64,000 nucleotides of DNA. Source: Cyanidioschyzon merolae (taxonomy: Eukaryota). The notes under the pieces are model-generated. The model worked only from the letters and a program-made list of their open reading frames with translations, was not told the origin of the DNA and searched no databases. Location of the stretch: the NCBI GenBank assembly GCA_000091205.1, contig AP006498.2; one strand, 5' to 3'. A program made the position numbers and the translations under genes. Positions 36,538 through 63,020 of this stretch are shown here, in pieces (position 1 is the stretch's first letter; each line of letters opens with the position of its first letter).

Positions 36538-37668
36538 ATGAGTAGCGACTCGGGCAGCAACACGATCCGTTGTGGACACGCTGTCACGTGCGATCCCGCA
36601 GTGAAGCGTGTTCCGTTCGAGGTCGCTTTTGCAGTGACGCCGCTTGGGTGGACTCGATCTGCGAAATTGGGATCTGCGGTAACCGAGGAACGCGCTTTAA
36701 GTAGTCGATTGGTCTCGAGGTACTGGCAGGTGGCGCGGTCGTCGCTGACGGCCCCGAACAGCGATACGAAGGTGCGCGCCAGCAGTCTACGTGTCCGCTG
36801 GTTTATGAGTTCGACGCAGCAAGATTGTTCCGAAAGCGTCAATCGGGTCGCGAACTTGAGGACGGAGTCTCATGTACTCTCTGATCGCGGCGAAAAGGAC
36901 AACCTCCAGCTGCCGTTGGATACGAGTTTTTCAGCATCTTCCAGCGATCCAGGTTCAGCGTTACATGGTGAGTTGCCACGTTCCCCACGTCTGGCACGAC
37001 TGGTGCCGCTGGAAGTTCAGTTATTTTTGTTGGCGCTGCTCCCGTCAGGTGTGCGATCGAGGTCCCAGTACGCTCGTCGAGTCTCTCAACGCGTGGCGCG
37101 TCTTCGCTACATCCTCCGACAGCGAAAATGGAACCGGACTGGTACGAGAAGCTCCGAATCGGATCATCCCTTTGAATCGAATCAGATGCAGATCTCGGTA
37201 TCACTGCATCCGCGGAGCCCTCGAAGCGGCTCCACAACACCCGATGATCTTGCAGTGATGCCCTCTTCTCGAGAACAGCTGGAGCGGATCTGGGAACGAG
37301 CGTCTCCGATGCAACAGAGCGTCGAGCGACCTAATCCAGAGCACCATGAGGTGAACGATTCGGCTACGGTTTGGGAAATGGGAGAGCGTGCACTCAGCTT
37401 TTTGCTGCAGACGCGCCGCCGGCGACTCCTCATGTACGCCTTATTGTTGACGATGATTCTGGCTCCGGCGCGAGCCGAAGGTCTTGCGCGATGGGCCGGC
37501 GAGCTGGGTATTCGGCCACTTGCTATTCGGCACCCCATTTTTGCAGTGCTCTCCGTGTTATTGGACATGTACCAGGAGCTGGTCGGAAGCAACCTCATTC
37601 CCGATGATTCGCACTGGAGTCTGATCGCGCACGTTGTCGAAGTGGTGTTGCTGATGGTCGCCATGTGA
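36538..37668 (+). CDS. Hypothetical protein (C-terminal hydrophobic helices)
   Basis: 376-aa ORF from an ATG and the longest frame in the interval. It is Ser/Arg-rich, with C-terminal hydrophobic segments 'LLMYALLLTMILAPA' and 'LIAHVVEVVLLMVAM'. I recognise no family. Overlapping antisense ORFs are shorter. Confidence 0.3.
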   Translation: MSSDSGSNTIRCGHAVTCDPAVKRVPFEVAFAVTPLGWTRSAKLGSAVTEERALSSRLVSRYWQVARSSLTAPNSDTKVRASSLRVRWFMSSTQQDCSESVNRVANLRTESHVLSDRGEKDNLQLPLDTSFSASSSDPGSALHGELPRSPRLARLVPLEVQLFLLALLPSGVRSRSQYARRVSQRVARLRYILRQRKWNRTGTRSSESDHPFESNQMQISVSLHPRSPRSGSTTPDDLAVMPSSREQLERIWERASPMQQSVERPNPEHHEVNDSATVWEMGERALSFLLQTRRRRLLMYALLLTMILAPARAEGLARWAGELGIRPLAIRHPIFAVLSVLLDMYQELVGSNLIPDDSHWSLIAHVVEVVLLMVAM

Positions 37669-42680: not shown

Positions 42681-42873
42681 GCACCGGAAGCATCGGGTGC
42701 CACCGCGTTGATCTCGGCGCATCGTACTCGAGTCGTCGCGTTTACAGCTTTTGGGTGCAAGCCTAGGTCGTCGTCTTTTCTTGGATAGCATCTGGGCCAA
42801 CTTGACGATAACGAAGTAAAATCGGAACACTGATTGAGCGCTATTAGGAGACTTGTTCGAAGTTTTTGGGAGA

Positions 42874-44241
42874 ATGTTTCAGTTCGCGGTGCTGAAGCTG
42901 ACGCGTACGCCCAGGTGCGCTGGGCACACGGCACCGCGTTCGTTGCAGGCTGCTTCTGGGGCAAAGTTTAGGCTGCGCTCGGAGCGACTCAGGTATCATG
43001 TCGCTTCTCTTGCGCTCCGTGCGGCGCTGGATACAGACTATGAGGGCTGCTTGTCCGAAAGCAGCGTCGTCGAAACCTGCAACGAAGCCCCGTTGCTCCT
43101 GCGGGTCTTGCGCTGCGACCCCAGCGTGCCGCGGCCACCGGTATGGTTCATGCGTCAGGCCGGCCGCTACATGAGCGCGTTTCGGATGTACTCTGGGCGT
43201 TATGCGTTCCGCGAGCGTGCCGAAACACCTGAAATCGCTGTCGAGCTTTCGCTGCAGCCGTGGAGAGCGTTCGGAGTGGACGCCGTCATCATGTTCGCAG
43301 ATATTTTGACCCCCTTGCCGCCCATGGGCCTTGACTACCAAATCGTATCCGGACAGGGTCCATCGATTAAAACTCCTGTTCGATGCATGGAGGATGTTGA
43401 GCTTGTGCGTCCGCTCACCCCCGAGGATACAGAGACAGCACTTAGCTTCGTGGGAACGACACTCTCGACGCTTGCGCATACGCTTGCAGACGCTCGTCCG
43501 AGACCGGCGCTGCTTGGATTTCTGGGTGCACCCTTCACGCTCGCTGCATACGGGATCGAGGGCGAAGGCGGACGGGCCTCATCAGGCAAGCAGGTGAAGC
43601 GCATGATGTACACAGCAGAAGGCCGAGAACTCATGCATCGATTACTGCAGAAAATCACACAGAGCATGATCGTTTTTGCAGCTTACCAGGCTCGAAAAGG
43701 AGCTGAGGCGATTCAGATTTTCGACTCTTGGGCCCACTTGCTTAGCCCCGAGGATTACCAGGAGTTTTCGCTCTTCTACGTGGAAGAATTGGTACGCGGA
43801 ATCCGTGCGCATGGCGTCGAAACTCCATTGATCTTCTTTGCAAATGGGTCGTGTGGTAAGTTGGGGGTCATCTCTGCGATGTATCCAGCGGATACGAGGG
43901 AAGCCAACGGATACCGGGGTCTCGATGCGCTCGCCCTGGACTGGCGAACGAGCATCGCAGAGGCGCGTCAGCTGTTTGGCAAGCGAGCGGTGCTCCAGGG
44001 CAACATCGATCCAACGGTATTGGCGTGCGGCGACACTGCCAGCGTGAAGGCAGCCATTGATCGTTGTGTTTGCGCTGCGTCGGGTGGTGCGCATATCCTC
44101 AATGTGGGCCGTGGTATTCAGCCGGATACCCCCGAGGAAATGGTCGCGCTCTTCTGTGAGCACGTTCGAGCTCTTCCAGAGACAGACTGGTATCAGCAGT
44201 TGCGACATCGGCACCTGGTTGAAAATGGAGTGCCAGGATAG
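42874..44241 (+). CDS. UROD: Uroporphyrinogen decarboxylase (HemE/UROD) with an N-terminal targeting extension
   Basis: Canonical 'PPVWFMRQAGRYMSAFRMY' N-terminal motif, then 'FGVDAVIMFADILTPLPPMGLDY' and 'LLGFLGAPFTLAAY'; the length and collinearity fit URO-D throughout. About 75 aa of Arg/Ala/Ser-rich presequence precede the core. The track ORF starts at TTG 42853; the first ATG is 42874. Confidence 0.9.
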   Translation: MFQFAVLKLTRTPRCAGHTAPRSLQAASGAKFRLRSERLRYHVASLALRAALDTDYEGCLSESSVVETCNEAPLLLRVLRCDPSVPRPPVWFMRQAGRYMSAFRMYSGRYAFRERAETPEIAVELSLQPWRAFGVDAVIMFADILTPLPPMGLDYQIVSGQGPSIKTPVRCMEDVELVRPLTPEDTETALSFVGTTLSTLAHTLADARPRPALLGFLGAPFTLAAYGIEGEGGRASSGKQVKRMMYTAEGRELMHRLLQKITQSMIVFAAYQARKGAEAIQIFDSWAHLLSPEDYQEFSLFYVEELVRGIRAHGVETPLIFFANGSCGKLGVISAMYPADTREANGYRGLDALALDWRTSIAEARQLFGKRAVLQGNIDPTVLACGDTASVKAAIDRCVCAASGGAHILNVGRGIQPDTPEEMVALFCEHVRALPETDWYQQLRHRHLVENGVPG

Positions 44242-45769: not shown

Positions 45770-47143
45770 ATGTCCATAGGCTCGGCTTCTTCTTTTCTGG
45801 TGCAGAGGATTTCGCTTACGATGCGCCAACAGCTCGCTTCTTTCCTCGGACTACTGCTGTTGTGGCGCGGGCGCAGTTTTCTGGTCCGGCGCGCTGTGAA
45901 ACGATCGCCACACCTGCACCAACCAGCCGTGGTGCTCTTTGTGCTCTGTAACGTTATTCTAGGATGGAGTCTACTGGCCTCCCTGGGCGTCGACTGGGCA
46001 CGTTTCCTCAAACTGTTCGCTGCTGGCGGCAGTTGTGCGGTTCTGATGCACGTACTCACGACGCCTGTCGACGTTGTACGTACTAAAATGCAGCTCGAAC
46101 CTGAACGCTATCCTTCAGTTTTGGCCTGCGTTTCTCGGATTATCAACGAAGATGGCCCGTTTATGTTTCTTCAGGGGTTTGGCGCCACTGCCTTAGGGTA
46201 TCTGATACATGGTGGCCTCAAGTACGCCGTATATGAGCAGTTACGAACGCTGACGATGGTGCTGACGCGCACACCAGCTGGCCAGCCGCTATCGTCGCTT
46301 CACTTTGTCACTTCTGCGACAGTGGCTGAACTAGTAGCATCGACAGCGCTGTGCCCGCTGGAGTCGGTACGGATTCGAATGGTCCAGGATCGGACGTTTG
46401 CGCGAGATGTCTGGCAGGGTCTGGCGCAAGTGTGGGCCGAGGGCTCCCGCAGCATGTACAAAGGGCTGATGCCGCTGATCGCCAAACAGTGCCCGTATAC
46501 TTTGGCTCAGTTTTGGACCTACGAGTGGTTGCTGGCTGGACTGCGGGCCACATGGATAGGTCGAAACGCACCGTTGGACGCTCAGCTGCCTGTGTCTCTG
46601 GAACGGCGCCTGTCGCTTCTTGCGGGCCTGCTCAGCGGGATCGCAGCCGCGTTCGCCAGCCAACCGGGAGACACGATCCTGAGCCGCATCAACAAACATC
46701 ATGCCGGTCTCGCGGGTTTAATGTTGACAGAAATCGGACAGGCTCTGTCGACGCCACCCGGTGCGGAAACAGACGCGAACATTCGCTCGCCGAGTGCATC
46801 CTTGTCCCCGACTGTGGCGGACAAGAATCGAAAACAGATGCAACCGAATGAAATCCCAATGAGGGCTGATCAAGGGTCTGCATCGAATATGAAACGTTTT
46901 CTTTTCGAGCGATTTCGACTGAGATCAGCCACTTGTATGTGGCTCGATTCGATCCGACAGTCCTGGATGGATATGTGGACGATTGCGAGAGAATTAGGGC
47001 CACGAGGCATGTTTCTCGGCTTTGTTCCGCGTTGTGCTCAAGTCATGATCCTCGTAAGTGGCCAGTTTCTGTTCTATGCAGAGATCAAGGCGTTCTTTGG
47101 TATACCGGAAACGCTTGGACGTGGATCCACACATCGACCATGA
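45770..47143 (+). CDS. Mitochondrial phosphate carrier (SLC25A3/MIR1-like) with an about 90-aa insertion in the third repeat
   Basis: 'GGSCAVLMHVLTTPVDVVRTKMQLEPERYPS', 'GFGATALGYLIHGGLKYAVYEQ', 'CPLESVRIRMVQDRTFARDVWQG', 'SQPGDTILSRINK' and the C-terminal 'LGFVPRCAQVMILVSGQFLFYAEIKAFFG' align with phosphate-carrier blocks ('TPLDLVKCRMQVD', 'CPMEAVKVRVQTQPGFA', 'SHPADTVVSKLNQ', 'IIMIGTLTALQWFIYD'). It starts at an ATG. Confidence 0.8.
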   Translation: MSIGSASSFLVQRISLTMRQQLASFLGLLLLWRGRSFLVRRAVKRSPHLHQPAVVLFVLCNVILGWSLLASLGVDWARFLKLFAAGGSCAVLMHVLTTPVDVVRTKMQLEPERYPSVLACVSRIINEDGPFMFLQGFGATALGYLIHGGLKYAVYEQLRTLTMVLTRTPAGQPLSSLHFVTSATVAELVASTALCPLESVRIRMVQDRTFARDVWQGLAQVWAEGSRSMYKGLMPLIAKQCPYTLAQFWTYEWLLAGLRATWIGRNAPLDAQLPVSLERRLSLLAGLLSGIAAAFASQPGDTILSRINKHHAGLAGLMLTEIGQALSTPPGAETDANIRSPSASLSPTVADKNRKQMQPNEIPMRADQGSASNMKRFLFERFRLRSATCMWLDSIRQSWMDMWTIARELGPRGMFLGFVPRCAQVMILVSGQFLFYAEIKAFFGIPETLGRGSTHRP

Positions 47144-47146
47144 CTG

Positions 47147-47173
47147 GCGTGTGTGTGTGTGTGTGTTTGTGTG
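47147..47173. repeat. (GT)n microsatellite
   Basis: 'gcgtgtgtgtgtgtgtgtgtttgtgtg' immediately after the stop codon of the phosphate-carrier gene. Confidence 0.9.
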
Positions 47174-47915
47174 CCGTATTCCGGAAGCGGCGCGACGACT
47201 GTTGGGTACGCATGCCCCAATGCATCCCTCGCGGGATCTTTGTACAGCATCCAGTCTGCAGGGCATACGACGCAATCGCCAGCCCTGCATCATGGTCGAT
47301 TTCCTCGTGGTTGTAAACGACCGCAAGCCATACAGCATGCGCTTTGCTTGTTGCCTGGAAAGCGATCATCGCTACGATATCCACCGGCATGCAGGGTAAG
47401 CGCTGTGCGAGCTCGCCGTAAAGTGCTCCACCCCAGCGCCAATCGTCTCATATGTTTCATTCTGGAGCACAAGGCGCCGTCCTCAACGGATATGAGCGTC
47501 GTGCACCTCTGGACAACGCCGGGCATGGTAGAGGATCGAAACGTTCCGCGACATGCGGCGGCATGAGCGGAACGCGATTGTGGATCCCGCGTACTCGACG
47601 ACCTCTGGAAAGCGTTGTGAACCCAGGCACTTGGTGGAAACGATGCATAAGGTCGCTGGATTCCGTGGTGTTCAGCAAGATTAGCTCTGTCACATGTCAA
47701 TCATCTTTGAATGCGACGAGCTGCGTGCTGGAGCGCCCACAGGCACCCGGCGCAACGTATCCGGTACACGATGTTGCCATGGGTGACGTCCCCTGGTGTA
47801 AACAATGCACGAGCCGCATCACTGCTGCATAAAGACTAGCCGGTGGAGAAGGTGAAGCTCCGGTTGCTCGATGAATCAAAGCCCAAGGCGAGATGCAGCC
47901 AACGCAATCAATAAA

Positions 47916-48192
47916 GTGATGCTCACCGCACGAAAGAAACCCATTCGGTATCAGACGCATAATTGAGTAGACTTGTATGGATTGTCCGTACAGTGACGCT
48001 CACCGCATGGAACAAACCCATGCGGTATCAGACGCATGATTGAGTAGACTTGTATGGATTGTCCGTACAGTGATGCACACCGCACGAAAGAAACCCATGC
48101 GGTATCAGACGCATAATTGAGTAGACTTGTATGAATTGTCCGTACAGTGATGCTCACCGCACGAAACGAACCCATGCATTATCAGACGCATG
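47916..48192. repeat. Tandem repeat, 77-bp unit x about 3.6
   Basis: 'gtga(t/c)gc(t/a)caccgca(c/t)g(a/g)aa(g/c)aaacccat(g/t)cggtatcagacgcat(a/g)attgagtagacttgtatg(g/a)attgtccgtaca' begins at 47916, 47992, 48069 and 48146. A (CGT)7 run follows at about 48229-48250. Confidence 0.85.
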
Positions 48193-48644
48193 ATTGACTT
48201 GAATGCCCGCACCGCTTCGTGTGTAAAGCGTCGTCGTCGTCGTCGTCGACTCGGGCAGCTTCATGCGGATTCACGCTTGGCGGGCTGGTTCGAGTCTCGA
48301 CCGCAAGATCGTCTAGAGCAAACGCGCTTGCTGGCAGCCATTGGTCTTTCAACGATGCCGTTGTACCCAAGCGCCTCTATCAGAAACCTTCACAAGAGAT
48401 ATTGTAAACACCCCGTAGTGCCCTGCTCGGTCACGCACGAACCCGAATCGCAGGCACATCATCTCCGTCTCAAGCGAGCAGCATACCTCAGCAAACGCGA
48501 TGAAGATCGCCTGCTTGCAGCGCTTCACAGTAAGCTTTCCACGACTTTGTCGAATAAGCCAACACCTGGTCACGAAAAGCGGCATCATCGGCAATGGTGA
48601 CGCAAAGCGCGCTCGGTCGTAAACAAGTGCAAACGTGACTCTAT

Positions 48645-50249
48645 TCATGAAAATGACCGTAGATCGCGCTCGTGGATACCCAACAGGAACAAGATGGAGG
48701 TGAGACTCTTGCTCTGAATCTTGCCGCCAATATTGGTGCCATCCCGAGCCCCTGGTTGTTCAAAGGCGATGGATAGACCCGCCGAGTCAAGCATTTTGGC
48801 GGACACTGGCCCGTCACCTACCGCAATAATCTGCTCCGGGCTGAGCTGCTCGCGCATCGCCAGCATGGTCAGCAGCTCTGCTTTCCGCTCTCCGTTGACG
48901 AGAGGCTCCAAGATCGCTCCGGTGAAACGCTCATTGCTGTCCGTTTCAAGACGATTGGCCGCAACGAAATCAATACCGAGGTCTGCTTTCACAAGCTCTG
49001 CCAAGAGCAAGGGCCCCGACGACAGCACCGCCGTTCGGTAGCCGAGTTTCTTGAGTACGCGACAGACCGAAGCGGCTCCATCGGTATATTCGATAAGCGC
49101 GTGTAGTCTTTCTGCTAAGCCAGTGCTCGATCGACCGCGAAGGAGCGCAGCACACGCTCGCAAGTAGTCTTCGGATCCGAGCGAGTGACAACGGCGCACT
49201 TCCGCGACTGCATCCGCATCCACTGCAGCCGCCTGGCAGAGGAGCTCGAAGCTATCCGCCTGGACCAGTGTCCACGACAGATCGAAAACGACCATTCGCT
49301 TCGTCCGCAATGCTCCTGCTCGCTCGAAAGCGATATCGACGAGAAACTCCTTGCCCAAATGCAGCAGTTCGCTGCGAACGCGGTCTGCCAAAGGGCCCCG
49401 CAGTGCTGCCATCACCTGAAAACAGGTACTGCGGCCCCCTGGCTCGTTCAATGACTGAATGGCATTCAAATTGATGCCGTTTTCAGCGAGGACATGCGTT
49501 GCTGTTGCCAAGAAATCAGCGGGAATGCGCGGTGTGCCTATAAAGGTGAACGTGTACGGCTCACCGGAGTCACCTTCAAGAGCTGCATTCGATTCTGCTT
49601 CGAGGGAGTCGAGCACCTCAAACTCGGTCTCGATCCCGCCCAGCTCATAGGCTGTCAAGAGAAACTCCCGTAGAAGGTACCCCTCGATGCCGAATTCGTG
49701 CTCGATGTGTGCCTCAGTTGAGCTCAGCGTCCCGCCAGGTTCAGCAGGGCTTCCAACTCCAAACGACTGCGGTGCCGAACCGCTCGTCGACTCTGTGCTC
49801 ATAGCTTCTGTTCCTGTTTCAGTAGATCGACGTTTTCGGAGCTGCGTGGGCGTCACTTCAACAGCCAGTGTGGCTGTGAATCGGTTTCCGACCGTAAACG
49901 ACGAGAGATCTCGCAGCTGCACGACGTCTCCGGCTTGAGCGAGCAGCGACAGAAACCGTGAGAGCCAGCTCGGCTGCACAGCGCCGTGGAGCGTAATCAC
50001 AAGCAGTCGTTTGCTGTGCGTTGAACCACGCTCTTTAGGTCGCTTACGTGGACTCGAGCGCGATGGACTCATCACTGACCCAGATATCGACGAACGAAAA
50101 CGCGAACACCCTTGCCGGTCACGCAGAAGCGAAAGCGCCATCTGTAGCAGCTTTGGGTCGTCGTTGTGATGGATTCCGTGAACGGAGCGGTTGTTCATGC
50201 CATACTGGCGGGAGCGAGGACGACAAGAGCGACTTTCGAGGCGCATCAT
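48645..50249 (-). CDS. Phosphoserine-phosphatase (SerB)-like HAD protein with an N-terminal ACT-like region; catalytic motifs partly degenerate
   Basis: The C-terminal 250 aa are collinear with SerB. 'FTGAILEPLVNGERKAELLTMLAMREQLSPEQIIAVGDGPVSAKMLDSAGLSIAF' corresponds to E. coli 'FTGNVIGDIVDAQYKAKTLTRLAQEYEIPLAQTVAIGDGANDLPMIKAAGLGIAY'. HAD motif I reads 'VVFDLSWTL' (DxDxT becomes DxSxT). Motif II Ser is kept in 'VLSSGPL'. Motif IV 'GDGPVS' lacks the second acidic residue. The N-terminal 280 aa have an ACT-like alpha/beta character. It starts at an ATG. Confidence 0.6.
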   Translation of the reverse strand: MMRLESRSCRPRSRQYGMNNRSVHGIHHNDDPKLLQMALSLLRDRQGCSRFRSSISGSVMSPSRSSPRKRPKERGSTHSKRLLVITLHGAVQPSWLSRFLSLLAQAGDVVQLRDLSSFTVGNRFTATLAVEVTPTQLRKRRSTETGTEAMSTESTSGSAPQSFGVGSPAEPGGTLSSTEAHIEHEFGIEGYLLREFLLTAYELGGIETEFEVLDSLEAESNAALEGDSGEPYTFTFIGTPRIPADFLATATHVLAENGINLNAIQSLNEPGGRSTCFQVMAALRGPLADRVRSELLHLGKEFLVDIAFERAGALRTKRMVVFDLSWTLVQADSFELLCQAAAVDADAVAEVRRCHSLGSEDYLRACAALLRGRSSTGLAERLHALIEYTDGAASVCRVLKKLGYRTAVLSSGPLLLAELVKADLGIDFVAANRLETDSNERFTGAILEPLVNGERKAELLTMLAMREQLSPEQIIAVGDGPVSAKMLDSAGLSIAFEQPGARDGTNIGGKIQSKSLTSILFLLGIHERDLRSFS

Positions 50250-50893: not shown

Positions 50894-51361
50894 CTACGCC
50901 GAGCGATTGTACGTTCCTTTGGCGTAGCCCGCATATCCGATTTGCCCAAAGATAAGCAAAGCAAACAACCCCACGTGATATACGATCAGGTAGAACCAGA
51001 ACGGGTCATCCAGCTTTGGTCCAGTTGGGTACTGCGCCAGCAGACGCTGAATCGACGCCAGAAACGCCTGCGTCAGGCCAGTGCCACCCAGAACGGGTAT
51101 GTTCGATGGGATAGCGGCTACTGCGCTCCAACCGATAAGCGCAATAAAAATAACAGCAGGGTTCAGTGGGTACGGCTCACCGTCGGATACCTCAAACATG
51201 CGAAGAGAAGACGCACCCACGAGACGCTGGGGACGCGACAGCGCGATGCGCACTGGAGCCACCCGCGCTGCTCGTGTGGTGAAGCTGCAGCGAGCTGCAC
51301 ACGTGCACTGCTGCCGCTGCAAGGCCGACGCCACTGGTAATACACTAACAAAGCCGTACAT
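50894..51361 (-). CDS. PSAO: Photosystem I subunit O (PsaO)-like small two-TM membrane protein with a transit peptide
   Basis: The mature part 'AVIFIALIGWSAVAAIPSNIPVLGGTGLTQAFLASIQRLLAQYPTGPKLDDPFWFYLIVYHVGLFALLIFGQIGYAGY' matches, from memory, plant PsaO 'VVGFGLIGWLAPSSIPAINGKSLTGLFFDSIGTELAHFPTPPALTSQFWLWLVTWHLGLFLCLTFGQIGFKG'. It has an Ala/Arg/Ser-rich presequence. The track ORF starts at TTG 51367; the first ATG is 51361. Confidence 0.5.
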   Translation of the reverse strand: MYGFVSVLPVASALQRQQCTCAARCSFTTRAARVAPVRIALSRPQRLVGASSLRMFEVSDGEPYPLNPAVIFIALIGWSAVAAIPSNIPVLGGTGLTQAFLASIQRLLAQYPTGPKLDDPFWFYLIVYHVGLFALLIFGQIGYAGYAKGTYNRSA

Positions 51362-52088
51362 GTTCAAGTTTCGTTCTCGAGGTTCCGCTGGGCGTGGTTA
51401 TGGTGCTCGAGCGCTTCCAAACGCTTCAGCACGATGTGTCAATCACAGATTCCGATGCATCGCGTGGGAAGTGCGCGGGGGAGCTCGCGCATTGCAAACC
51501 CTTCCTCAAGATCAATCCCTCATTGTCCAATTATATACATAAAGTTCACTTAATATTCCACTTAGAACAGTTTCCTCGGGAGCGTTTCGCTCATGCAGCA
51601 TCGCAGGCTGTGCATCGCAGATCGCCGCCGGGTGCATCGCCCAGCGCGCCGATTCCGCAGCACAGCGGCGTTGACGAGATCGCGTCGCTCGGACTCGAGG
51701 ATGGATCGTGCGCGCTGCAACGCTGCTATGGCTGGATAGAGCGCACGTTTTCCCGACGTCAGCGACATTGTGTAGATAGGTTGGGCGCTTGAAAAGGTGA
51801 CGTCACAAGCCTGTTGGGCTCACGGTAACCAGCAGGGAGCAATCACTCGTCGATCACCGCTGGTTTCTAAAACTGGAGGGTTTCTTTGCGCGTTACGCTA
51901 CGTGTGAACGCGCTGATACCGCTGCTAGAGCGCGAAGAGCAACCCTCAGACCTCAAGCGGTTCGCTCGGAGGCCACATCAATTGGACAGCTCGCTCCAGG
52001 TGTGCGCGTCTTGTCCGTTGGAGACCGCCGGACCCAGTTGAACTGTTGCAGTGACCTGGAAGCTTTGGCGACCTGAGCGTCTGCGGTC

Positions 52089-54017
52089 ATGCGAAGCAGG
52101 TACTGCTTTTTGTTGTCAAGCACGCCCTGTAAGTACGCTGGGCAGCGTAGTCCGTTCCCTGCCAGCGCATTAGCGGGCGTATGTGCCGGAGGGCGGCTCC
52201 GCAACGTTACGCGCAACCTTCGGCCGGGGCTCCGTACTTTGCGTGCCTCAGCTGAAACAGAGCATTCGCAAGGCACCCGCCAAGCACAGTATGACTTTAT
52301 CATCGTTGGCGCTGGTGCGGCCGGCTGCGTGCTCGCTAACCGCCTATCAACGGCCCAGTTCAGCAATGGAGACCGCCGGTATCCCCGTGTACTCCTGCTG
52401 GAAGCAGGTGACGCACTCGCGGAGGCGCCGTACTTCGAGCACATTCCCCTTGGATTTCCTCAGCTGATCGGAAGCCGCCTCGACTATGGCTTTTTTTCAC
52501 GCGAGAATCCTACCCATTTGGGTGGTCGTGGAGCAGTCTACCTTCCGCGAGGTCGCGGCGAGGGAGGCTCCCATGCGATCTCGGTGATGTTGGTGCATCG
52601 TGGCTCGCGTCACGACTATGAAACGTGGGTGAAAGATTACGAGGCTCTCGGATGGGGGCCGGATGACGTCCTCCCGTACTTCAAACGGCTGGAATCGAAT
52701 GAAAGAACAGCGCAGCGGGGCGCCGACGGGGAGGCAGCGACGGCGCTGCACGGCTCGGACGGACCGCTCCGAGTGTCGGACCAGCGCTCTCCGAACCCGC
52801 TGTCGTTAGCGTTCATTGAAGCATGTCTCGAACGCGGTATCCGGCGCAACAAAGACTTTAATGATTGGGACCATGGTCAAGAGGGCGCCGGTCTCTTCCA
52901 GGTCACCCAGCGAGACGGCCGGCGCGAAAGCCCAGCGACTGCCTATCTGCAACCGGTGCGGTCGCGCCGAAACTTGCACATTGAGACGAATGCACTCGCT
53001 GAACACCTCGTCTGGTCCAAGGACGGTCGTCGCGTCGAGGGTATTCGTTTCATTGATCGACATGGGCGCCGACGTGCAGCGCTCGCGCACTGCGAGGTGA
53101 TTCTTGCGGCGGGTGCTATTAACACGCCCCAGTTGCTGATGCTCTCCGGATTAGGTCCGGGTGCACATTTACAAGACTTTGGCATACCCGTGGTGCGAGA
53201 CCTTCCCGGGGTAGGCCAGAACCTCCAGGATCATGCGGCAGTGATGCTTTCGTACTACGCCCCGGATCCTTATGGTAAGGATCGGGACAAGAAGCGCATA
53301 TTCTACACCGAGCGCCTAGGAAAAGATCCACTGGTACTTGCCGAGTACTTTTTGCTAGGAAGAGGGCCCTTGACCTCGCCTGTGTGCGAGGCCGGTGCTT
53401 TTGTTCACACGCAGGCGGTGATCGGCGAGCCCAGCTGTGATCTGCAGCTTCGCTTTGTGCCGTTTTTCTCCGATGCAGATCCGTACAAGAGCCTCGGCGA
53501 ATATCGCAGTGGAGGTCATGTGCTAACGAATACCAGCATTCGTCCAGCAGGTTTTGGTTTGCAGGCTGTTGCGATCCGCCCGCGGAGTCGTGGTCGGATC
53601 GAGCTTGCGACGATCGACCCACGAGCACGCCCCATTATCCACACTGGATGGCTAGAGGACAAGCGAGACCTGCAGACCCTGCTCTCGGGACTGAAGCTGG
53701 GCCGAGAGATTCTCTCCGGCGACTCGATGCGCCCCTATCGTGGGCGAGAAGCATTCCCAGAAACGTTAGAGGACGATCTCGTGACCTACATCCGCCGCAC
53801 GTGCCATACAGCGAATGCGATCGTTGGCACGGCACGTATGGGAACAGGGCGCGATGCGGTTGTCGACCCTGAGCTTCGTGTCCACGGTGTTGAGCGACTG
53901 CGGGTAATCGATGCCTCTGTCATGCCGAAAATTATTGGCGGCCAGACGGGGGTTCCGACGATGATGATCGCCGAGCGTGGTGCTGATTTGGTGAAAAAGA
54001 CTTGGAAACTGGTGTAA
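52089..54017 (+). CDS. GMC-family FAD oxidoreductase (choline dehydrogenase-like)
   Basis: N-terminal Rossmann FAD motif 'YDFIIVGAGAAGCVLANRLS', the GMC signature region 'GGSHAISVMLVHRGSRHDYETW', and a C-terminal substrate domain with 'CHTANAIVGTARMG' (active-site His region) and 'VHGVERLRVIDASVMP'. An Arg/Ser-rich presequence of about 60 aa precedes the FAD motif. It starts at an ATG. Confidence 0.85.
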   Translation: MRSRYCFLLSSTPCKYAGQRSPFPASALAGVCAGGRLRNVTRNLRPGLRTLRASAETEHSQGTRQAQYDFIIVGAGAAGCVLANRLSTAQFSNGDRRYPRVLLLEAGDALAEAPYFEHIPLGFPQLIGSRLDYGFFSRENPTHLGGRGAVYLPRGRGEGGSHAISVMLVHRGSRHDYETWVKDYEALGWGPDDVLPYFKRLESNERTAQRGADGEAATALHGSDGPLRVSDQRSPNPLSLAFIEACLERGIRRNKDFNDWDHGQEGAGLFQVTQRDGRRESPATAYLQPVRSRRNLHIETNALAEHLVWSKDGRRVEGIRFIDRHGRRRAALAHCEVILAAGAINTPQLLMLSGLGPGAHLQDFGIPVVRDLPGVGQNLQDHAAVMLSYYAPDPYGKDRDKKRIFYTERLGKDPLVLAEYFLLGRGPLTSPVCEAGAFVHTQAVIGEPSCDLQLRFVPFFSDADPYKSLGEYRSGGHVLTNTSIRPAGFGLQAVAIRPRSRGRIELATIDPRARPIIHTGWLEDKRDLQTLLSGLKLGREILSGDSMRPYRGREAFPETLEDDLVTYIRRTCHTANAIVGTARMGTGRDAVVDPELRVHGVERLRVIDASVMPKIIGGQTGVPTMMIAERGADLVKKTWKLV

Positions 54018-56036: not shown

Positions 56037-56900
56037 ATGTTTCCGCTCGTGATGCAGCGGCAACTCCTTGAGGCGAATATGGCACACGGTTTATCTTTTT
56101 GCTTTGTAGCAGCGTTTGGTTCGGGTAAAACACGCACCTGGAGGCAACAGCAGCTCGACCAGCGGTGCCGACCTCAGCACCGGAGACCGCAGTTGGCAGT
56201 GACGGCGACGCTGCTTGAACGTGAGCTGATTGCAGGGTCTGCTCGCGGAGCTGCCCTGGAAACCTTCAAACTCTTTTTCCGGTGCCAGCCGGGGCGTTGG
56301 CGCTCAGAACGTTGCTACTTTTATCGAGAGACCGCGGATGTTGCCGACAGGGGCGGAGAAAGCGTGGAACGCTCGGAAACGCTGTTCCAAGTCGAGCCAC
56401 TGACGGCGGAAACGACCACCAAGGTGCTGCGGGACAACGGAACGGACGAGTCGAAACTTATCAGCGAAGGTTTCCATTCGTTGGAATACGCTGCTGGGTT
56501 TAAAGTCTCGTTTAATACGAGAATGGAGCACAGCGGTGATGTAAGCGCGAGCACGAATTTACTTTTCGTTCCGCAGGTGCTGGACGTGCAGCTCGCTCGA
56601 CAACTAGGTCTCGTGCGTGGCCTCTATTTCCGCGACAAGGGTTACGAAGAAGACCGGCCGATTGTTGGTCAGTTCGAGTTTCATGTCACGACGCGTGAAC
56701 TTGTAATGGTGACGGCTTACGCGCGTACAGTTAGTGTTGATCGCATTCTACTTTGCAGTGAGCGCCAGAGACTGCGACAAATCGCCAACTATCGCCGGCC
56801 AGAGGCGTGGCAGAGGGACGCTCCCTTGGATCGGAACCGGTCGTTGTTGACGGAAGTGCGTCTCCTTGGTGCCGGTATCGAAGACCGACTGCCAGACTAA
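56037..56900 (+). CDS. Hypothetical protein
   Basis: 287-aa ORF from an ATG and the longest frame in the interval. I recognise no family. It lies between the dispersed-repeat fragment and a convergent small ORF. Confidence 0.3.
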   Translation: MFPLVMQRQLLEANMAHGLSFCFVAAFGSGKTRTWRQQQLDQRCRPQHRRPQLAVTATLLERELIAGSARGAALETFKLFFRCQPGRWRSERCYFYRETADVADRGGESVERSETLFQVEPLTAETTTKVLRDNGTDESKLISEGFHSLEYAAGFKVSFNTRMEHSGDVSASTNLLFVPQVLDVQLARQLGLVRGLYFRDKGYEEDRPIVGQFEFHVTTRELVMVTAYARTVSVDRILLCSERQRLRQIANYRRPEAWQRDAPLDRNRSLLTEVRLLGAGIEDRLPD

Positions 56901-57603: not shown

Positions 57604-59295
57604 ATGGTTCGCGAGCCAACCTTCGTGCCCTGTCACCTGAAAAGTGCTCGAACGCGTTTCGTCCACGCGTGTGCTCTTGGAGTTTGTGAGCGAGCGACAA
57701 CGCGACATGGCGCACAGCTATCGATTCGCAAAGCACGAGTGAGCGGGCACAGCGCGCCCGCAACGCACCTGCGGCACCGAGGCGGCACCCGGGACCTCGT
57801 TGCTCGCAGTTTTGGAGAGCCACCCTTCGAAGGCGACCTCGACTCGGAACGAGACTGGAAAGCGGCAGCCAACTACGATGCACCGGCGCCGAGCGCAGTC
57901 TCTCCGTGTTTTCCACTACTAGACTGGCAGGTGCCGTCTCTGCGTGCAGCTGAGGAGCGCTGGCTCGCCGAGGAAGTCCGTCTTTGGTTAGACCGAGAAT
58001 GGGAGCCGCTTGCAGCACACCGGGAGATAGGTGAAAAAGCTGCGAAAGCGGCACTTGACGCACGCATGGCGTTAGAGGGTAGCGGCAGGACCGCCAAGTT
58101 CGGTGAAGTTCTCATCACTGTTGCCTCTGAACTGGAGCGCGGCCCGAATCACCAGGTGGGTCGCGACTCCTGGAGAGAAGCCTATGTGAATCCCTTTGAT
58201 GTCGCCAACAAAGTAAGTGACCTGTACATGGTCCGGTATTTTGTAGAAACGGAACTTACTGCACCTGCGGAGGACGAGTCCGACGCGACGGACATCGATT
58301 CGAGCTGGACCGCGCTACCCCTCTCGGACACCTGTCGTTGCACTTGTCTGGATTATGAAGATATTTTGGCGATTCAAAAGCGGGCACGAGATCTGGGCCT
58401 CTCCGTTGGCCGGATCGCTTACGATAAATCGCGCCTCGGCGGTCAGGCGCAAGTGCGAAAGAACCGCACGGATACTGGGGCATCACCAACTGGAAGCAGC
58501 GTCTACGAGCGCAGCTATGCTGCAGACCATGTGGACAAAACGATACAAAGCTTTGACGATGTAATGTACCGGGAGCGAGTCCTCTATGAAGCTCTGAGAA
58601 CTAAGCGTCTCGTTCAGGAGCGAGGTCTGTATGGCGATTTTGCGCTGGGATGCAACGAAGAATACGTGAAGGCGGCGTTTCCATCAGACAAGGTCTGGGG
58701 CTGGGACCCCGACCCACACCAGCAATCGGATGCGAGACCACCATCAATGCCGATCGAGTCGACACCGTTTGATGGCATCGTGGGCTCCATTCGCGATGTT
58801 CACCCCTTCGATAGGCATGTTTTCTTTATGGGAACGCTCTACGGCGATATCCCGAGCGTAGTCGTGAATCGCGTGGTCTCCGAGACCGCACGCTTAGCAA
58901 ATCATACCATGCTGCTCCATCATGATTTTGACGTAGAAGCATTATTACGCGGGGTAGATGGCACCGATGCGATCGTTGACCAGCTGAATGGGTTATCGGT
59001 TGAGGTCGCATTTCGGGCGCTGCGCCCAGCACCGGCTGCAGCGACGTCTCAAGGCGATTCCGCCGCAGCGGAAGCGCACATGGCGGGAACGCAGTCTGAT
59101 GCAGGCACGCATGCAGCAGACGCGGATGCAGATGCAGAGCTGCGGATGCAAATTCAACGCGATCTTGATCTGCTCATCGAGACGCTGTATGGTGAGGTGG
59201 CTGCTCAGGTAGCGCTCCAAGAGAAGGATCGGAGTTTCCGAGTACGTTCCGCAATCGTACGGTACTTGGCTGCTTTCACTTGGGGTACACCCTGA
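57604..59295 (+). CDS. Hypothetical protein (563 aa)
   Basis: Long uninterrupted ORF from an ATG, with sense-frame codon bias, an Arg/His-rich N-terminus and an acidic Ala/Asp-rich C-terminal tail. I recognise no domain. Confidence 0.4.
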   Translation: MVREPTFVPCHLKSARTRFVHACALGVCERATTRHGAQLSIRKARVSGHSAPATHLRHRGGTRDLVARSFGEPPFEGDLDSERDWKAAANYDAPAPSAVSPCFPLLDWQVPSLRAAEERWLAEEVRLWLDREWEPLAAHREIGEKAAKAALDARMALEGSGRTAKFGEVLITVASELERGPNHQVGRDSWREAYVNPFDVANKVSDLYMVRYFVETELTAPAEDESDATDIDSSWTALPLSDTCRCTCLDYEDILAIQKRARDLGLSVGRIAYDKSRLGGQAQVRKNRTDTGASPTGSSVYERSYAADHVDKTIQSFDDVMYRERVLYEALRTKRLVQERGLYGDFALGCNEEYVKAAFPSDKVWGWDPDPHQQSDARPPSMPIESTPFDGIVGSIRDVHPFDRHVFFMGTLYGDIPSVVVNRVVSETARLANHTMLLHHDFDVEALLRGVDGTDAIVDQLNGLSVEVAFRALRPAPAAATSQGDSAAAEAHMAGTQSDAGTHAADADADAELRMQIQRDLDLLIETLYGEVAAQVALQEKDRSFRVRSAIVRYLAAFTWGTP

Positions 59296-60018: not shown

Positions 60019-61686
60019 TCAGTGCCAGTCGATGAGGTCTCGTTCTGACGTACCATTGGACTGATTGGAATGCTTTGTTGTTGTGGTGCTGGCGATGGTG
60101 GCGGTCTGCGGCGGTTCCTTTCCCGCGATCCCGTAAACGTGCTGTCTTGTAGCGATCCCAGAGACAGGTTCTGAAGTTATGTCCGAGCGTTCCGACGGAT
60201 TCAAAGCGGCGTGGCTCGTGCCTTTGCGAGCCATGGATTCCGCTACGGCCAGCTGTGTGTAATCCGCATTCACTCTCTGGGATCCGGGATATTCGCTGGC
60301 TATTGAATTCAGGGAATGCGGCGCACCTGCAAATGAACGCTTGACGGAAGCTGATCCGCCGTGGACCTCACGTTGCCTGCCGGAGCACGTCTTGCCACTG
60401 AATTCAAAATGCCGGCTGGTGTCTACCTCGGGGAAGGTCGCCCAGCACAGTTCATCATCCATCGGTGCTGAACAGGCGCTTCCATGAGCTTGCAGCGCAT
60501 CGCTATTGAGCGAAGCATCGTGGACATTCAGCTGTGCGTCTCGTGAGCTGAATGGGTGTTCGTCTTGCTCGCTCTCTTGGAGAAGAAAAGCAATCGCTTC
60601 GTTTGCAGACCAACGTCGCTGCACGTCCAGTTTCAAAAGACCTCGTAGAAGCTGCTCGACACGATCAGAGTACTGAGCCCGCCGTTTGCTATCAATTAGA
60701 TGCCAGGGAGCACCAGAGATGATCTGCAGTTCGCCATCATTGGCGAAAGGATGAAAGCCATACGCCAAGCTGAAAAGCACACACCCGCAAGCCCAAATAT
60801 CCTGCTTCTCTGGCATGCTATGCACGAGGCTCGCTGATGCAAAAGCGTCGATCATCTCCGGGGCCCTGTACCATCTAGTCGTCATGGCTATGGTCGACGA
60901 ATTCGGGTCATGCGGGACATTCGCCGTCGCAACGGGATGCGATGCCAGCGCGCTCTCTCCTGGACTTGTTCGATGATCGCCTTCCGGAACAAAAAGCTGA
61001 GCGCTCGCGAGGTCGCAGAGCAACCAGCGCTGCGCCTGCGGGTCGTACAGAATGTTCTCGAGCTTCACATCGCGATGGATGATCGCTGCGGGTTGTAAAG
61101 CATGCAGGTAGCGGAGTGCACCCAGGAGGTCTAGCGCAATCCGAAGCAACCGGGATTCTGGTAGCGGCTGGCGAGCTAGGGCCTCTCTCTCGAATAGCTC
61201 CGCGAGCGAGCCGCCTCGAACTCGTTCCAGCAGAAGAAACACCGAGCTTTCGGTGCCTTCCAGCACACAACTACCGTAAAACCTTACCACGCCATTTGGA
61301 AGCTGCGGTCGATCGTGGCATCGGCACGACTCTAGGTACTCGTAGATGGCGCGTTCGTTCTCCGCAAGGCGCCGAATGTCTGCCGAGGTCCCAAAGTGGG
61401 TCGCTTTGACGACATACGGAGCCGTATAGCGGCTGTTCTTGTCGTCACAACGCTCCGAGGCCGCATGGATCGTCGCATACCCGCCAGTTGCAATCGGTGG
61501 TGACCAGAGGATAATTTCTCGGTCCCGAATGACTAGCGTCCGAAGAAGGCCGCCATCCTCTCCATCAAAGTGTTCCGGGAAACCTCCAGGATGCAGCGCA
61601 GCGCCTCGCTCTGCGTTGCGGTCTGTGGTAGGCGACGTTGCCCAGGACTGGAACCAGTCCAAGGCCCCCTTGGTCCAAGTGAACAT
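60019..61686 (-). CDS. Serine/threonine protein kinase (NAK/AAK1-like) with a low-complexity C-terminal tail
   Basis: Gly-loop/Lys region 'GGYATIH...YVVKATHFG', catalytic loop 'IIHRDVKLENILYD', activation segment 'LLCDLASAQLF' (DFG replaced by DLA, as DLG/DFGS variants in NAK kinases), 'WYRAPEMI', and 'DIWACGCVLFSLAYGFHPF'. It starts at an ATG. Confidence 0.8.
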   Translation of the reverse strand: MFTWTKGALDWFQSWATSPTTDRNAERGAALHPGGFPEHFDGEDGGLLRTLVIRDREIILWSPPIATGGYATIHAASERCDDKNSRYTAPYVVKATHFGTSADIRRLAENERAIYEYLESCRCHDRPQLPNGVVRFYGSCVLEGTESSVFLLLERVRGGSLAELFEREALARQPLPESRLLRIALDLLGALRYLHALQPAAIIHRDVKLENILYDPQAQRWLLCDLASAQLFVPEGDHRTSPGESALASHPVATANVPHDPNSSTIAMTTRWYRAPEMIDAFASASLVHSMPEKQDIWACGCVLFSLAYGFHPFANDGELQIISGAPWHLIDSKRRAQYSDRVEQLLRGLLKLDVQRRWSANEAIAFLLQESEQDEHPFSSRDAQLNVHDASLNSDALQAHGSACSAPMDDELCWATFPEVDTSRHFEFSGKTCSGRQREVHGGSASVKRSFAGAPHSLNSIASEYPGSQRVNADYTQLAVAESMARKGTSHAALNPSERSDITSEPVSGIATRQHVYGIAGKEPPQTATIASTTTTKHSNQSNGTSERDLIDWH

Positions 61687-61898: not shown

Positions 61899-63020
61899 AT
61901 GGACCAGGCACTCGTTGCCGAGCACTATAACCGTAGAAAAGATGAGGGAAAAGAAGGACGAAAGTCTTCTCGAATCATACGCCTGCGAAATCTGAACAAC
62001 TGGATCAAGGCGGTTCTGATTGGACTGCACTCGAGACCCGGTTGCGTCGTGCTTGACCTCGCTTGTGGAAAAGGCGGCGACCTGCTCAAGTTCGCTCGAG
62101 CTCAGGTTTCACACTGGGTTGGTGTAGATCATGCTCGCGTGTCTCTAGAGCACGCTGTACAGCGCTACAACGACTTGGGTCCGAAGCAGCGCTCGTTTCC
62201 TGCACACTTCTTGTGCGGCGATGTGTTCGGCGTTGATCTCGAAGCAAATCTGGACCTCGAGTGGCCTGCGTTCGACCTCGTTAGCTGTCAGTTTGCGGTG
62301 CACTACGCTTTCGAAAGTGAACAGCGAGTTCGGCAGATGCTGCACAACGTTACCTGTCGACTGAAACCGGGTGGGTTTTTCATTGGAACGACGCCGGACG
62401 CTAATGTGTTGGTGAGCAAGCTGCGCGCAGCAAGTGGCTTGTCTTTCGGAAACAGTATTTACCGGATCTCGTTTGAAAATTCGAGTCAGAGTATCGACGC
62501 AGATGGAACGTCGGCGGATCTAGGGAACTTGGAGCACGATCCAGCGCCGACTCTGGAAACTGCAACCAGTGCGGCGAAGCGTTTCCCGCCGAGCCGGCCG
62601 TTCGGTATCCGGTATCATTTCACTTTGGACGAAAATGTCGAAGACTGTCCAGAATACCTGGTGCATTTTCCAACCTTTGAGCGAATCGCCGCGGAATATG
62701 ACCTGGAGCTGTTGCTCCGAATGAACTTTCATGCGTTTGTGAACGCCTTTGCACTTCAGGCGGACGCACCAGCTCGATTCCGCGACCTTTTTCAACGAAT
62801 GCAGGTTCTTGATCCCGAGTCGGGCACGATTTCGCCTGAAGAGTGGGATGCAGCGTACCTGTATCTCGTGTTCGCGTTTCGGAAACGCGGCCAGGGACCG
62901 TCCGCTGCAACCGAGAGGCATGCACCCGTCCAGACGGAGCAGGCTGCGCCTCTGGATCCGCAGCTATCGATTCGAGACCTCAGCGCCCCGTCAAAGCCTG
63001 GGAATAGCGGGGACACGTAG
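61899..63020 (+). CDS. mRNA cap guanine-N7 methyltransferase (ABD1/RNMT family)
   Basis: 'VAEHYNRR...RIIRLRNLNNWIKAVLI' (cap-MTase N-terminal block), SAM motif I 'VLDLACGKGGDLLKF', 'VGVDHARVSLEHAVQRY', 'FDLVSCQFAVHYAFESE', and 'LKPGGFFIGTTPDANVLV' are the canonical conserved blocks of this family. It starts at an ATG. Confidence 0.85.
   Translation: MDQALVAEHYNRRKDEGKEGRKSSRIIRLRNLNNWIKAVLIGLHSRPGCVVLDLACGKGGDLLKFARAQVSHWVGVDHARVSLEHAVQRYNDLGPKQRSFPAHFLCGDVFGVDLEANLDLEWPAFDLVSCQFAVHYAFESEQRVRQMLHNVTCRLKPGGFFIGTTPDANVLVSKLRAASGLSFGNSIYRISFENSSQSIDADGTSADLGNLEHDPAPTLETATSAAKRFPPSRPFGIRYHFTLDENVEDCPEYLVHFPTFERIAAEYDLELLLRMNFHAFVNAFALQADAPARFRDLFQRMQVLDPESGTISPEEWDAAYLYLVFAFRKRGQGPSAATERHAPVQTEQAAPLDPQLSIRDLSAPSKPGNSGDT

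Follow-up and report, generated by a model that had tools for sequence, protein, structure and literature searches.

Can a protein with the architecture of a phosphoserine phosphatase (PSP) and an altered active site still be the enzyme that its annotation names? The question is raised by a SerB-like gene on the minus strand at 48645..50249 of a 64,000-nucleotide stretch of contig AP006498.2 of the red alga Cyanidioschyzon merolae (assembly GCA_000091205.1), which we call the window throughout. A prediction made from the letters of this stretch alone (below, the original prediction) had described the product as a SerB-like HAD phosphatase with an ACT-like N-terminus and degenerate catalytic motifs, perhaps a pseudo-phosphatase. 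Judging from sequence comparison, the protein is very probably not the housekeeping PSP that databases name it, and we tentatively regard the gene as an ancient paralogue of the SerB2 type, present throughout red algae, whose active site would have been remodelled and then frozen.

The reading frame is single and intact and encodes a protein with the following parts.

48645..50249 (-), complete SerB2-like ACT-ACT-HAD open reading frame (ORF) of the "DLS" clade, 534 aa plus the stop codon at 48645-48647
50016..50249 (-), non-conserved N-terminal extension, residues 1-78, predicted disordered
49608..50015 (-), ACT1 domain, residues 79-214 (AlphaFold2, AF2; Foldseek)
49704..49841 (-), insert within ACT1, residues 137-182, fast-evolving, low-complexity and predicted disordered
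49314..49568 (-), ACT2 domain and linker, residues 228-312 (phmmer, AF2, Foldseek)
48648..49313 (-), HAD-IB (PSP-type) catalytic domain with C1 cap, residues 313-534

Hidden introns or frameshifts, of which the former had been named as a possible source of error in the original prediction, were considered and rejected, since orthologues align colinearly from end to end and homologues show no frame breaks along the whole length of the protein. The C-terminal half is SerB-like, as had been proposed: Pfam HAD matches residues 320-481 (E 7e-18), the best NCBIfam model is serB (TIGR00338; residues 313-522, 111.8 bits), and the closest solved structures found by phmmer are Mycobacterium avium SerB2 (3p96) and related entries (E ~2e-27, residues 231-529), followed by the shorter PSPs. 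The score stays below the curated cutoff for SerB equivalogs (144.15 bits, a whole-protein score), while the broader model TIGR01488 (HAD-SF-IB) is passed at 51.6 bits against a cutoff of 45. The marks of subfamily IB, a Rossmannoid HAD core with a C1 cap and the nucleophilic Asp at the end of strand 1, are accordingly present. For the ACT-like N-terminus, structure gives stronger support than sequence. Pfam ACT_6 matches the window protein weakly (E 0.012) and its orthologues significantly, and the AF2 model, with a mean predicted local distance difference test score (pLDDT) of 70 and values above 90 over most of residues 330-480, contains two beta-alpha-beta-beta-alpha-beta ACT-like units at ~80-214 and ~228-310, ahead of the HAD domain. 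The top Foldseek matches are SerB2 structures (3p96/5is2; E ~1e-28, ~458 aligned columns). Two N-terminal ACT domains ahead of a HAD-IB PSP domain constitute the SerB2-type architecture, and the protein is thus a HAD-IB member of that architecture.

Two segments stand outside this shared plan. The N-terminal extension shows no conservation even towards the closest genus; the Cyanidiococcus orthologue starts at the place of M60 (50070-50072), which may be the true start. The insert in ACT1 is limited to the group of Cyanidioschyzon, Cyanidiococcus and Cyanidium. The ligand loop of ACT1 reads GAVQPS, in contrast to the canonical GxDxPG; florideophyte members of the clade have G-K-Q-S-P-S/G/A at this place, while the canonical paralogues described below keep G-R-D-R-P-G.

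The catalytic motifs were placed by three independent alignments, phmmer against M. avium SerB2 (3p96), BLASTP against Methanocaldococcus jannaschii PSP (MjPSP; query verified as identical to 1f5s) and a MAFFT alignment of 72 modules, and the window coordinates of the residues were verified by translation. All three put FDLSWT on FD(V/M/F)DST and GDGPVS on GDGAND, and a regular-expression scan of the whole protein found no other DxDxT or GDxxxD. The positions are as follows.

49269..49286 (-), motif I, FDLSWT, residues 322-327; D323 kept, S325 in place of Asp+2, W326 at +3
49254..49256 (-), D332, equivalent to MjPSP E20
49152..49154 (-), C366, equivalent to MjPSP R56
49014..49022 (-), motif II, S410-S411-G412; phosphate-binding Ser kept, MjPSP G100 replaced by S411
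48882..48884 (-), motif III Lys, K456, equivalent to MjPSP K144 and kept
48801..48818 (-), motif IV, GDGPVS, residues 478-483; Mg-binding D479 kept, A/N/D replaced by P481/V482/S483

The motif assignments of the original prediction, including the retained nucleophile, the exchange of Asp+2 for Ser and the loss of the second acidic residue of motif IV, hold up under profile, BLAST and fold alignments alike. MjPSP, which lacks the ACT domains, is 30% identical to the window protein over the whole HAD domain and shares with it D11 (D323), T15 (T327), S99 (S410), K144 (K456) and D167 (D479); changed are D13 (S325), S14 (W326), E20 (D332), R56 (C366), G100 (S411), N170 (V482) and D171 (S483). Measured against what defines a SerB, the protein has the Ser/Thr of motif II and the Lys of motif III (S410 and K456, both invariant in the clade), but a motif I of D323-L-S325-W-T327 in place of DxDx(T/V) with both aspartates, and a motif IV in which only the first of the two acidic residues of GDGxND is left. 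The two contacts to the L-serine moiety are also exchanged, namely MjPSP E20 and R56, which from the published MjPSP structures we take to touch the amino group and the carboxylate of the substrate, respectively. At the E20 position all members of the DLS clade have Asp and all canonical SerB have Glu; at the R56 position Cyanidioschyzon and Cyanidiococcus have Cys, most of the other members Arg. The segment AMxGELDFxxSLxxRV of the canonical cap has diverged as well. With four defining features of SerB proper lacking, namely Asp+2, an intact motif IV, the contacts to the substrate and a score above the curated cutoff, the protein should not carry the label "phosphoserine phosphatase".

The altered motifs are not a peculiarity of one species. 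A profile search covered 1.84 billion representatives, and the best 150 hits were examined for motifs. All of the ~27 cluster representatives of the clade carry DLS(W/F/H/Y)T and GDGPVS together, a pair missing from canonical SerB among these 150 hits; the exceptions, Cyanophora P0151 and the N-terminal half of P0394, are themselves non-canonical. The named members are all red algae (Cyanidioschyzon-like, Cyanidiococcus, Cyanidium, Galdieria phlegrea, Rhodosorus marinus, Timspurckia oligopyrenoides, Chondrus and Agarophyton), orthologues with invariant motifs occur in every red-algal class sampled, and the clade has a bootstrap of 99-100% in neighbour-joining (NJ) trees. The nearest homologue is a 99%-identical metagenome protein from ENA, whose gene is likewise flanked by PsaO and, on the opposite side, by a mitochondrial carrier and URO-D; identity is 74% to the orthologue of Cyanidiococcus yangmingshanensis, 55-57% to that of Cyanidium caldarium and ~37-42% to those of Chondrus and Agarophyton.

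How the clade departs from the canonical enzymes was quantified column by column, for 18 clade members and 43 canonical modules (eukaryotic, fungal and bacterial). Conservation reaches 90% or more in both sets at 41 columns. The residue is the same at 33 of them, among these D323, T327, S410, K456, D479 and G480, the Arg-Lys of motif III and the Gly-Asp-Gly of motif IV. The other eight are fixed but different (clade/canonical: L324/M, S325/D, D332/E, S411/G, P481/A, V482/N, S483/D and Q498/A), and every one of them sits in an active-site loop.

Non-canonical catalytic motifs, together with a long disordered N-terminus and a low-complexity insert, could speak for a decaying gene or an annotation artefact without function, but this explanation is scarcely credible given the intact frame and the invariant motifs of the orthologues. 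Against the syntenic, 75%-identical orthologue L005, the proportion of non-synonymous differences (pN) is 0.16 and that of synonymous differences (pS) 0.78, the latter being saturated; the HAD domain, where model confidence is also highest, has a pN of 0.10, the ACT domains have 0.15 and the ACT1 insert has 0.46. With pN far below pS and lowest in the HAD domain, the protein is under purifying selection centred on the altered catalytic domain. The comparison with the 99%-identical contig L001 gives four synonymous and four non-synonymous changes, too few for dN/dS. The order GMC oxidoreductase, PsaO, SerB-like gene, mitochondrial carrier is kept in the 75%-identical Cyanidiococcus-like relative (L001, L005 and L006 were compared), and transcripts of the clade exist in Agarophyton (GEZJ01, transcriptome shotgun assembly, TSA) and in Rhodosorus and Timspurckia (TSA/MMETSP). 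On these comparative grounds the motif substitutions are to be read as remodelling followed by freezing, not as decay.

Searches with a Galdieria protein from the profile hits, and then with a Cyanidiococcus protein, found a second red-algal ACT-ACT-PSP family, whose motifs read DMDSTLIQQEVIDE and GDGANDLPML. Its members come from Cyanidium, Cyanidiococcus, Galdieria (three species), Porphyridium, Pyropia, Gracilariopsis, Gracilaria, Agarophyton, Compsopogon and Erythrolobus. Both copies occur in Cyanidium, Cyanidiococcus and Agarophyton, and also in the genus Galdieria, there in different species; JGI metagenome 3300041539 contains both copies of a Cyanidiococcus-like alga on separate contigs. 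C. merolae itself presumably has a canonical copy too, judging from its sister taxa; none of its own was found in the collections searched, which seem to lack named C. merolae proteins, and the best stand-ins are Cyanidiococcus-like. The glaucophyte Cyanophora paradoxa likewise has a canonical SerB2 (P0326) and a variant (P0151; DVSNT, GDGANS), in which the same two acidic positions as in the red algae are replaced by Ser and the Ala-Asn of motif IV is kept. The canonical proteins (Cyanidiococcus F1559_001192, P0281; Cyanidium CDCA01G0255, P0280; Galdieria P0147; Cyanophora P0326) share with the DLS clade the architecture, the organisms and, in NJ trees, a common eukaryotic SerB2 ancestry. They differ in their motifs, having DMDSTLIQQEVIDE, SGG and GDGANDLPML where the clade has DLSWTLVQxD, SSG and GDGPVS; in their TIGR00338 scores, 263-278 bits for the red-algal and glaucophyte copies against 112-144 bits for the clade, whose members beside the window protein score 118-144 bits; and in rate, the DLS protein evolving faster (~57% identity to the Cyanidium orthologue, compared with 72% for the canonical copy between Cyanidiococcus and Cyanidium). 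The preference of the original prediction for a regulatory role or an altered specificity over that of a housekeeping SerB is therefore supported by the canonical paralogue in sister taxa, the invariant variant motifs and the changed phosphoserine contacts.

Experimental data on mycobacterial SerB2 (M. avium 3P96; M. tuberculosis Rv3042c, MtSerB2) indicate what such replacements may mean. These enzymes share with the window protein the three-domain architecture, the fold and the HAD-IB core, with the nucleophile Asp, the Ser of motif II, the Lys of motif III and the first Asp of motif IV in common. The window protein has Ser for both D187 and D345 and Val for the Asn that precedes the latter; it has additional disordered segments (1-78 and 137-182), and missing from its ACT1 loop is the Gly/Asp consensus on which L-Ser binding by MtSerB2 depends, G18 being required according to the G18A result (PMC4270767). 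In MtSerB2, D187N retains ~80% and D345N ~45% of Vmax on phosphoserine (PMC4270767, Table 2), while D185N, S273A and D341N/D345N are dead (PMC4270767). The core chemistry can thus survive the loss of the two acids, taken singly, and these two losses are in themselves no proof of inactivity. The degenerate motifs of the original prediction are confirmed, but its "pseudo-phosphatase" is not established, as the phospho-aspartyl core is strictly conserved and the equivalent single mutants are active.

The same mutants could be taken to favour a second, divergent PSP isozyme that still makes serine, for instance in another compartment. The best database matches of the protein are all SerB/PSP, the source annotations of clade members read "phosphoserine phosphatase", and the N-terminal extension could be a targeting peptide. 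We nevertheless consider such an isozyme improbable: the protein stays under the SerB equivalog cutoff, which the true paralogues pass with about double its score, E20 has become an invariant Asp, N170 has become Val and, in C. merolae, R56 has become Cys. The cap segment AMxGELDF is not conserved either, and the putative targeting peptide lies in the extension that the closest genus does not conserve.

HAD clades in which Asp+2 is replaced and the nucleophile is kept are active enzymes with changed chemistry; examples are the P-type ATPases (Thr; DKTGT), phosphonatase (phosphonoacetaldehyde hydrolase; Ala) and 2-haloacid dehalogenase. They resemble the DLS clade in keeping the nucleophile while Asp+2 is replaced, a state accompanied in these lineages by altered chemistry or an aspartyl intermediate that lives longer, and differ from it in belonging to other HAD subfamilies and cap types, none of them being known to combine Ser at +2 with GDGPVS. 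Because such proteins are active, and because the clearly non-catalytic modules of alveolates described below have lost the nucleophile, our leading, if still provisional, reading is that of a functional phosphoryl-binding or phosphoryl-transfer protein with an altered substrate, slow turnover or both. D323, T327, S410, K456 and D479, all retained under strong constraint, supply what such a protein requires for binding Mg2+ and a phosphoryl group and for forming an aspartyl-phosphate. Exchanged for good are the acid/base at Asp+2, the Asn-Asp that ends motif IV, the Gly next to the Ser of motif II and the contacts to the serine moiety, and turnover would be much slower, differently catalysed, directed at another substrate, or a combination of these. 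The protein might also act jointly with the canonical SerB2 paralogue, as may be proposed because related degenerate modules are fused to canonical ones in alveolates.

These fused proteins were the next-best matches of the clade profile: proteins of 780-1150 aa with two complete ACT-ACT-HAD modules (P0126-P0153), of which the named alveolate ones come from the dinoflagellate Biecheleria cincta (P0134) and the gregarine Selenidium pygospionis (P0153); MMETSP transcripts encode such fusions as well. In the alveolate tandems the C-terminal module is canonical, and the N-terminal module has VFGLSxVL as motif I, with the nucleophile replaced by Gly, and no motif IV. Like the DLS clade, the N-terminal modules (e.g. 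P0134, P0153 and P0126-P0143) have Leu-Ser at +1/+2 in motif I and an Asp where MjPSP has E20. Unlike it, they lack the nucleophile, the Thr of motif I and motif IV as a whole, are fused to a canonical module and have a better-kept GxDxPG loop in ACT1. In gamma-corrected NJ trees the alveolate N-terminal halves group with the DLS clade at 66-69% bootstrap, even with the motif columns masked, while an internal duplication within alveolates receives 2-9%. A hidden Markov model (HMM) comparison with masked motif columns, in which the affinities of these halves for the clade and for the canonical enzymes differ by a small -7 to +45 bits, is confounded by evolutionary rate. A further tandem, the Logan protein P0394, has an N-terminal half with DMNYT and GDGPVS and a canonical C-terminal half; its AF2 model has a pLDDT of 82 and a predicted template modelling score (pTM) of 0.50, the N-terminal half lacks ACT1, and the single-module sequences all aligned to the C-terminal half.

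Several observations on the fusions stand apart from the red-algal gene. In some alveolate tandems, P0133 for example, the ACT1 ligand loop survives in the dead half alone, which suggests that the halves divide labour. The euglenid Ploeotia vitrea (P0141) has the reverse order, with a canonical N-terminal module and a degenerate C-terminal one (DLNKT, without motif IV). Each half has its nearest relatives among bacterial SerB, and the protein is apparently the product of an independent duplication and decay. Another type of fusion is found in the early-diverging fungi Mortierellomycota, Glomeromycota and Zoopagomycota (P0157, P0331, P0336, P0339 and many others), where a phosphate-sensing SPX domain precedes a canonical SerB2-type phosphoserine phosphatase (SPX-ACT-PSP). 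In the literature searched we found no description of the DLS paralogue or of tandem SerB2 proteins.

The alveolate modules bear on the main alternative explanation, which we hold possible and yet doubt, namely that the DLS protein is a non-catalytic regulatory or sensor subunit which pairs with the canonical SerB2 in a heterodimer held by the ACT domains and so adjusts serine synthesis. The altered pocket of the DLS protein would bind a ligand such as phosphoserine, phosphate or Mg2+ without turnover, and such a role would be compatible with the favoured reading. SerB2 forms dimers with domain-swapped ACT1, and its activity is set by the oligomeric state (PMC10564941). Both paralogues co-occur in red algae and Cyanophora, and a degenerate ACT-ACT-HAD module with FGLSxVL and no motif IV, which the trees join to the DLS clade in preference to an internal duplication, is fused N-terminally to a canonical module in alveolates, as is the GDGPVS half of P0394 to its canonical partner. 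This grouping could, however, be produced by long-branch attraction, the differences in HMM affinity are small and rate-confounded, and the low pTM of the fused P0394 gives no support for a defined packing of the modules. A pure scaffold would, moreover, not be expected to keep the nucleophile and four other catalytic residues strictly across Rhodophyta, residues that the clearly non-catalytic alveolate modules have lost.

The reading of a still-functional phosphoryl-binding or phosphoryl-transfer protein is itself not free of contrary evidence. The ACT1 loop without GxDxPG and the heavily diverged cap would each fit a purely non-catalytic role equally well; the related alveolate modules have lost the nucleophile altogether, so the paralogue lineage can work without catalysis; and the MtSerB2 data come from single Asp-to-Asn mutants, not from the S/V/S combination found here (PMC4270767). 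One could also speculate, although we think it unlikely, that sensor and enzyme, represented by the DLS protein and the canonical SerB2, are tied together in an obligate heteromer, an ancient two-gene system that became one fused polypeptide in alveolates, in which the DLS site, devoid of its acid/base, would hold a phospho-ligand or a long-lived aspartyl-phosphate and serve, like a receiver domain, as a switch for flux through the phosphorylated serine pathway.

The gene neighbourhood was considered as a clue to function and rejected, this being a eukaryotic nuclear locus whose neighbours (PsaO, mitochondrial carrier, URO-D, GMC oxidoreductase) are unrelated. The first three genes listed here are those of the conserved order.

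45770-47143 (+), mitochondrial carrier
50894-51367 (-), PsaO
52089-54017 (+), GMC oxidoreductase
42853-44241, URO-D
56037-56900, CpeS-like protein
60019-61686, protein kinase
61899-63020, mRNA cap N7-methyltransferase
57604-59295 (+), ORF of 563 aa, no Pfam match at E <= 1e-5
36538-37668 (+), ORF of 376 aa, no Pfam match at E <= 1e-5

A tandem repeat of 77 bp (47915-48197; 3.7 copies, 90% matches) lies in the intergenic region that separates the mitochondrial-carrier gene from the 3' end of the SerB-like gene. Here contig L001, which is 99% identical, is shorter by ~160 bp, and this points to a difference in the copy number of the repeat. A short (TG)n-type microsatellite, which reads as CVCVCV/THTHTH in several frames, is found just downstream of the mitochondrial-carrier ORF (~47150-47200).

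For the organism and its relatives the finding has a practical side, as automated annotation labels DLS proteins "phosphoserine phosphatase" throughout red algae and the last step of serine synthesis would thereby be double-counted in metabolic reconstructions. For the family, a canonical enzyme beside a conserved, remodelled paralogue amounts to a natural experiment on a HAD site without Asp+2 and the Asn-Asp of motif IV. The pairing of degenerate and canonical SerB2 recurs, between separate genes in red algae and glaucophytes and within fused proteins in alveolates and a euglenid, and because of this recurrence a partnership of enzyme and pseudoenzyme may be a general way of regulating the dimeric, ACT-controlled SerB2. 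C. merolae is genetically tractable, and the question can therefore be put to a direct test; the gene offers an ancient, testable case of active-site remodelling, and possibly of an enzyme/pseudoenzyme partnership, inside a well-known superfamily.

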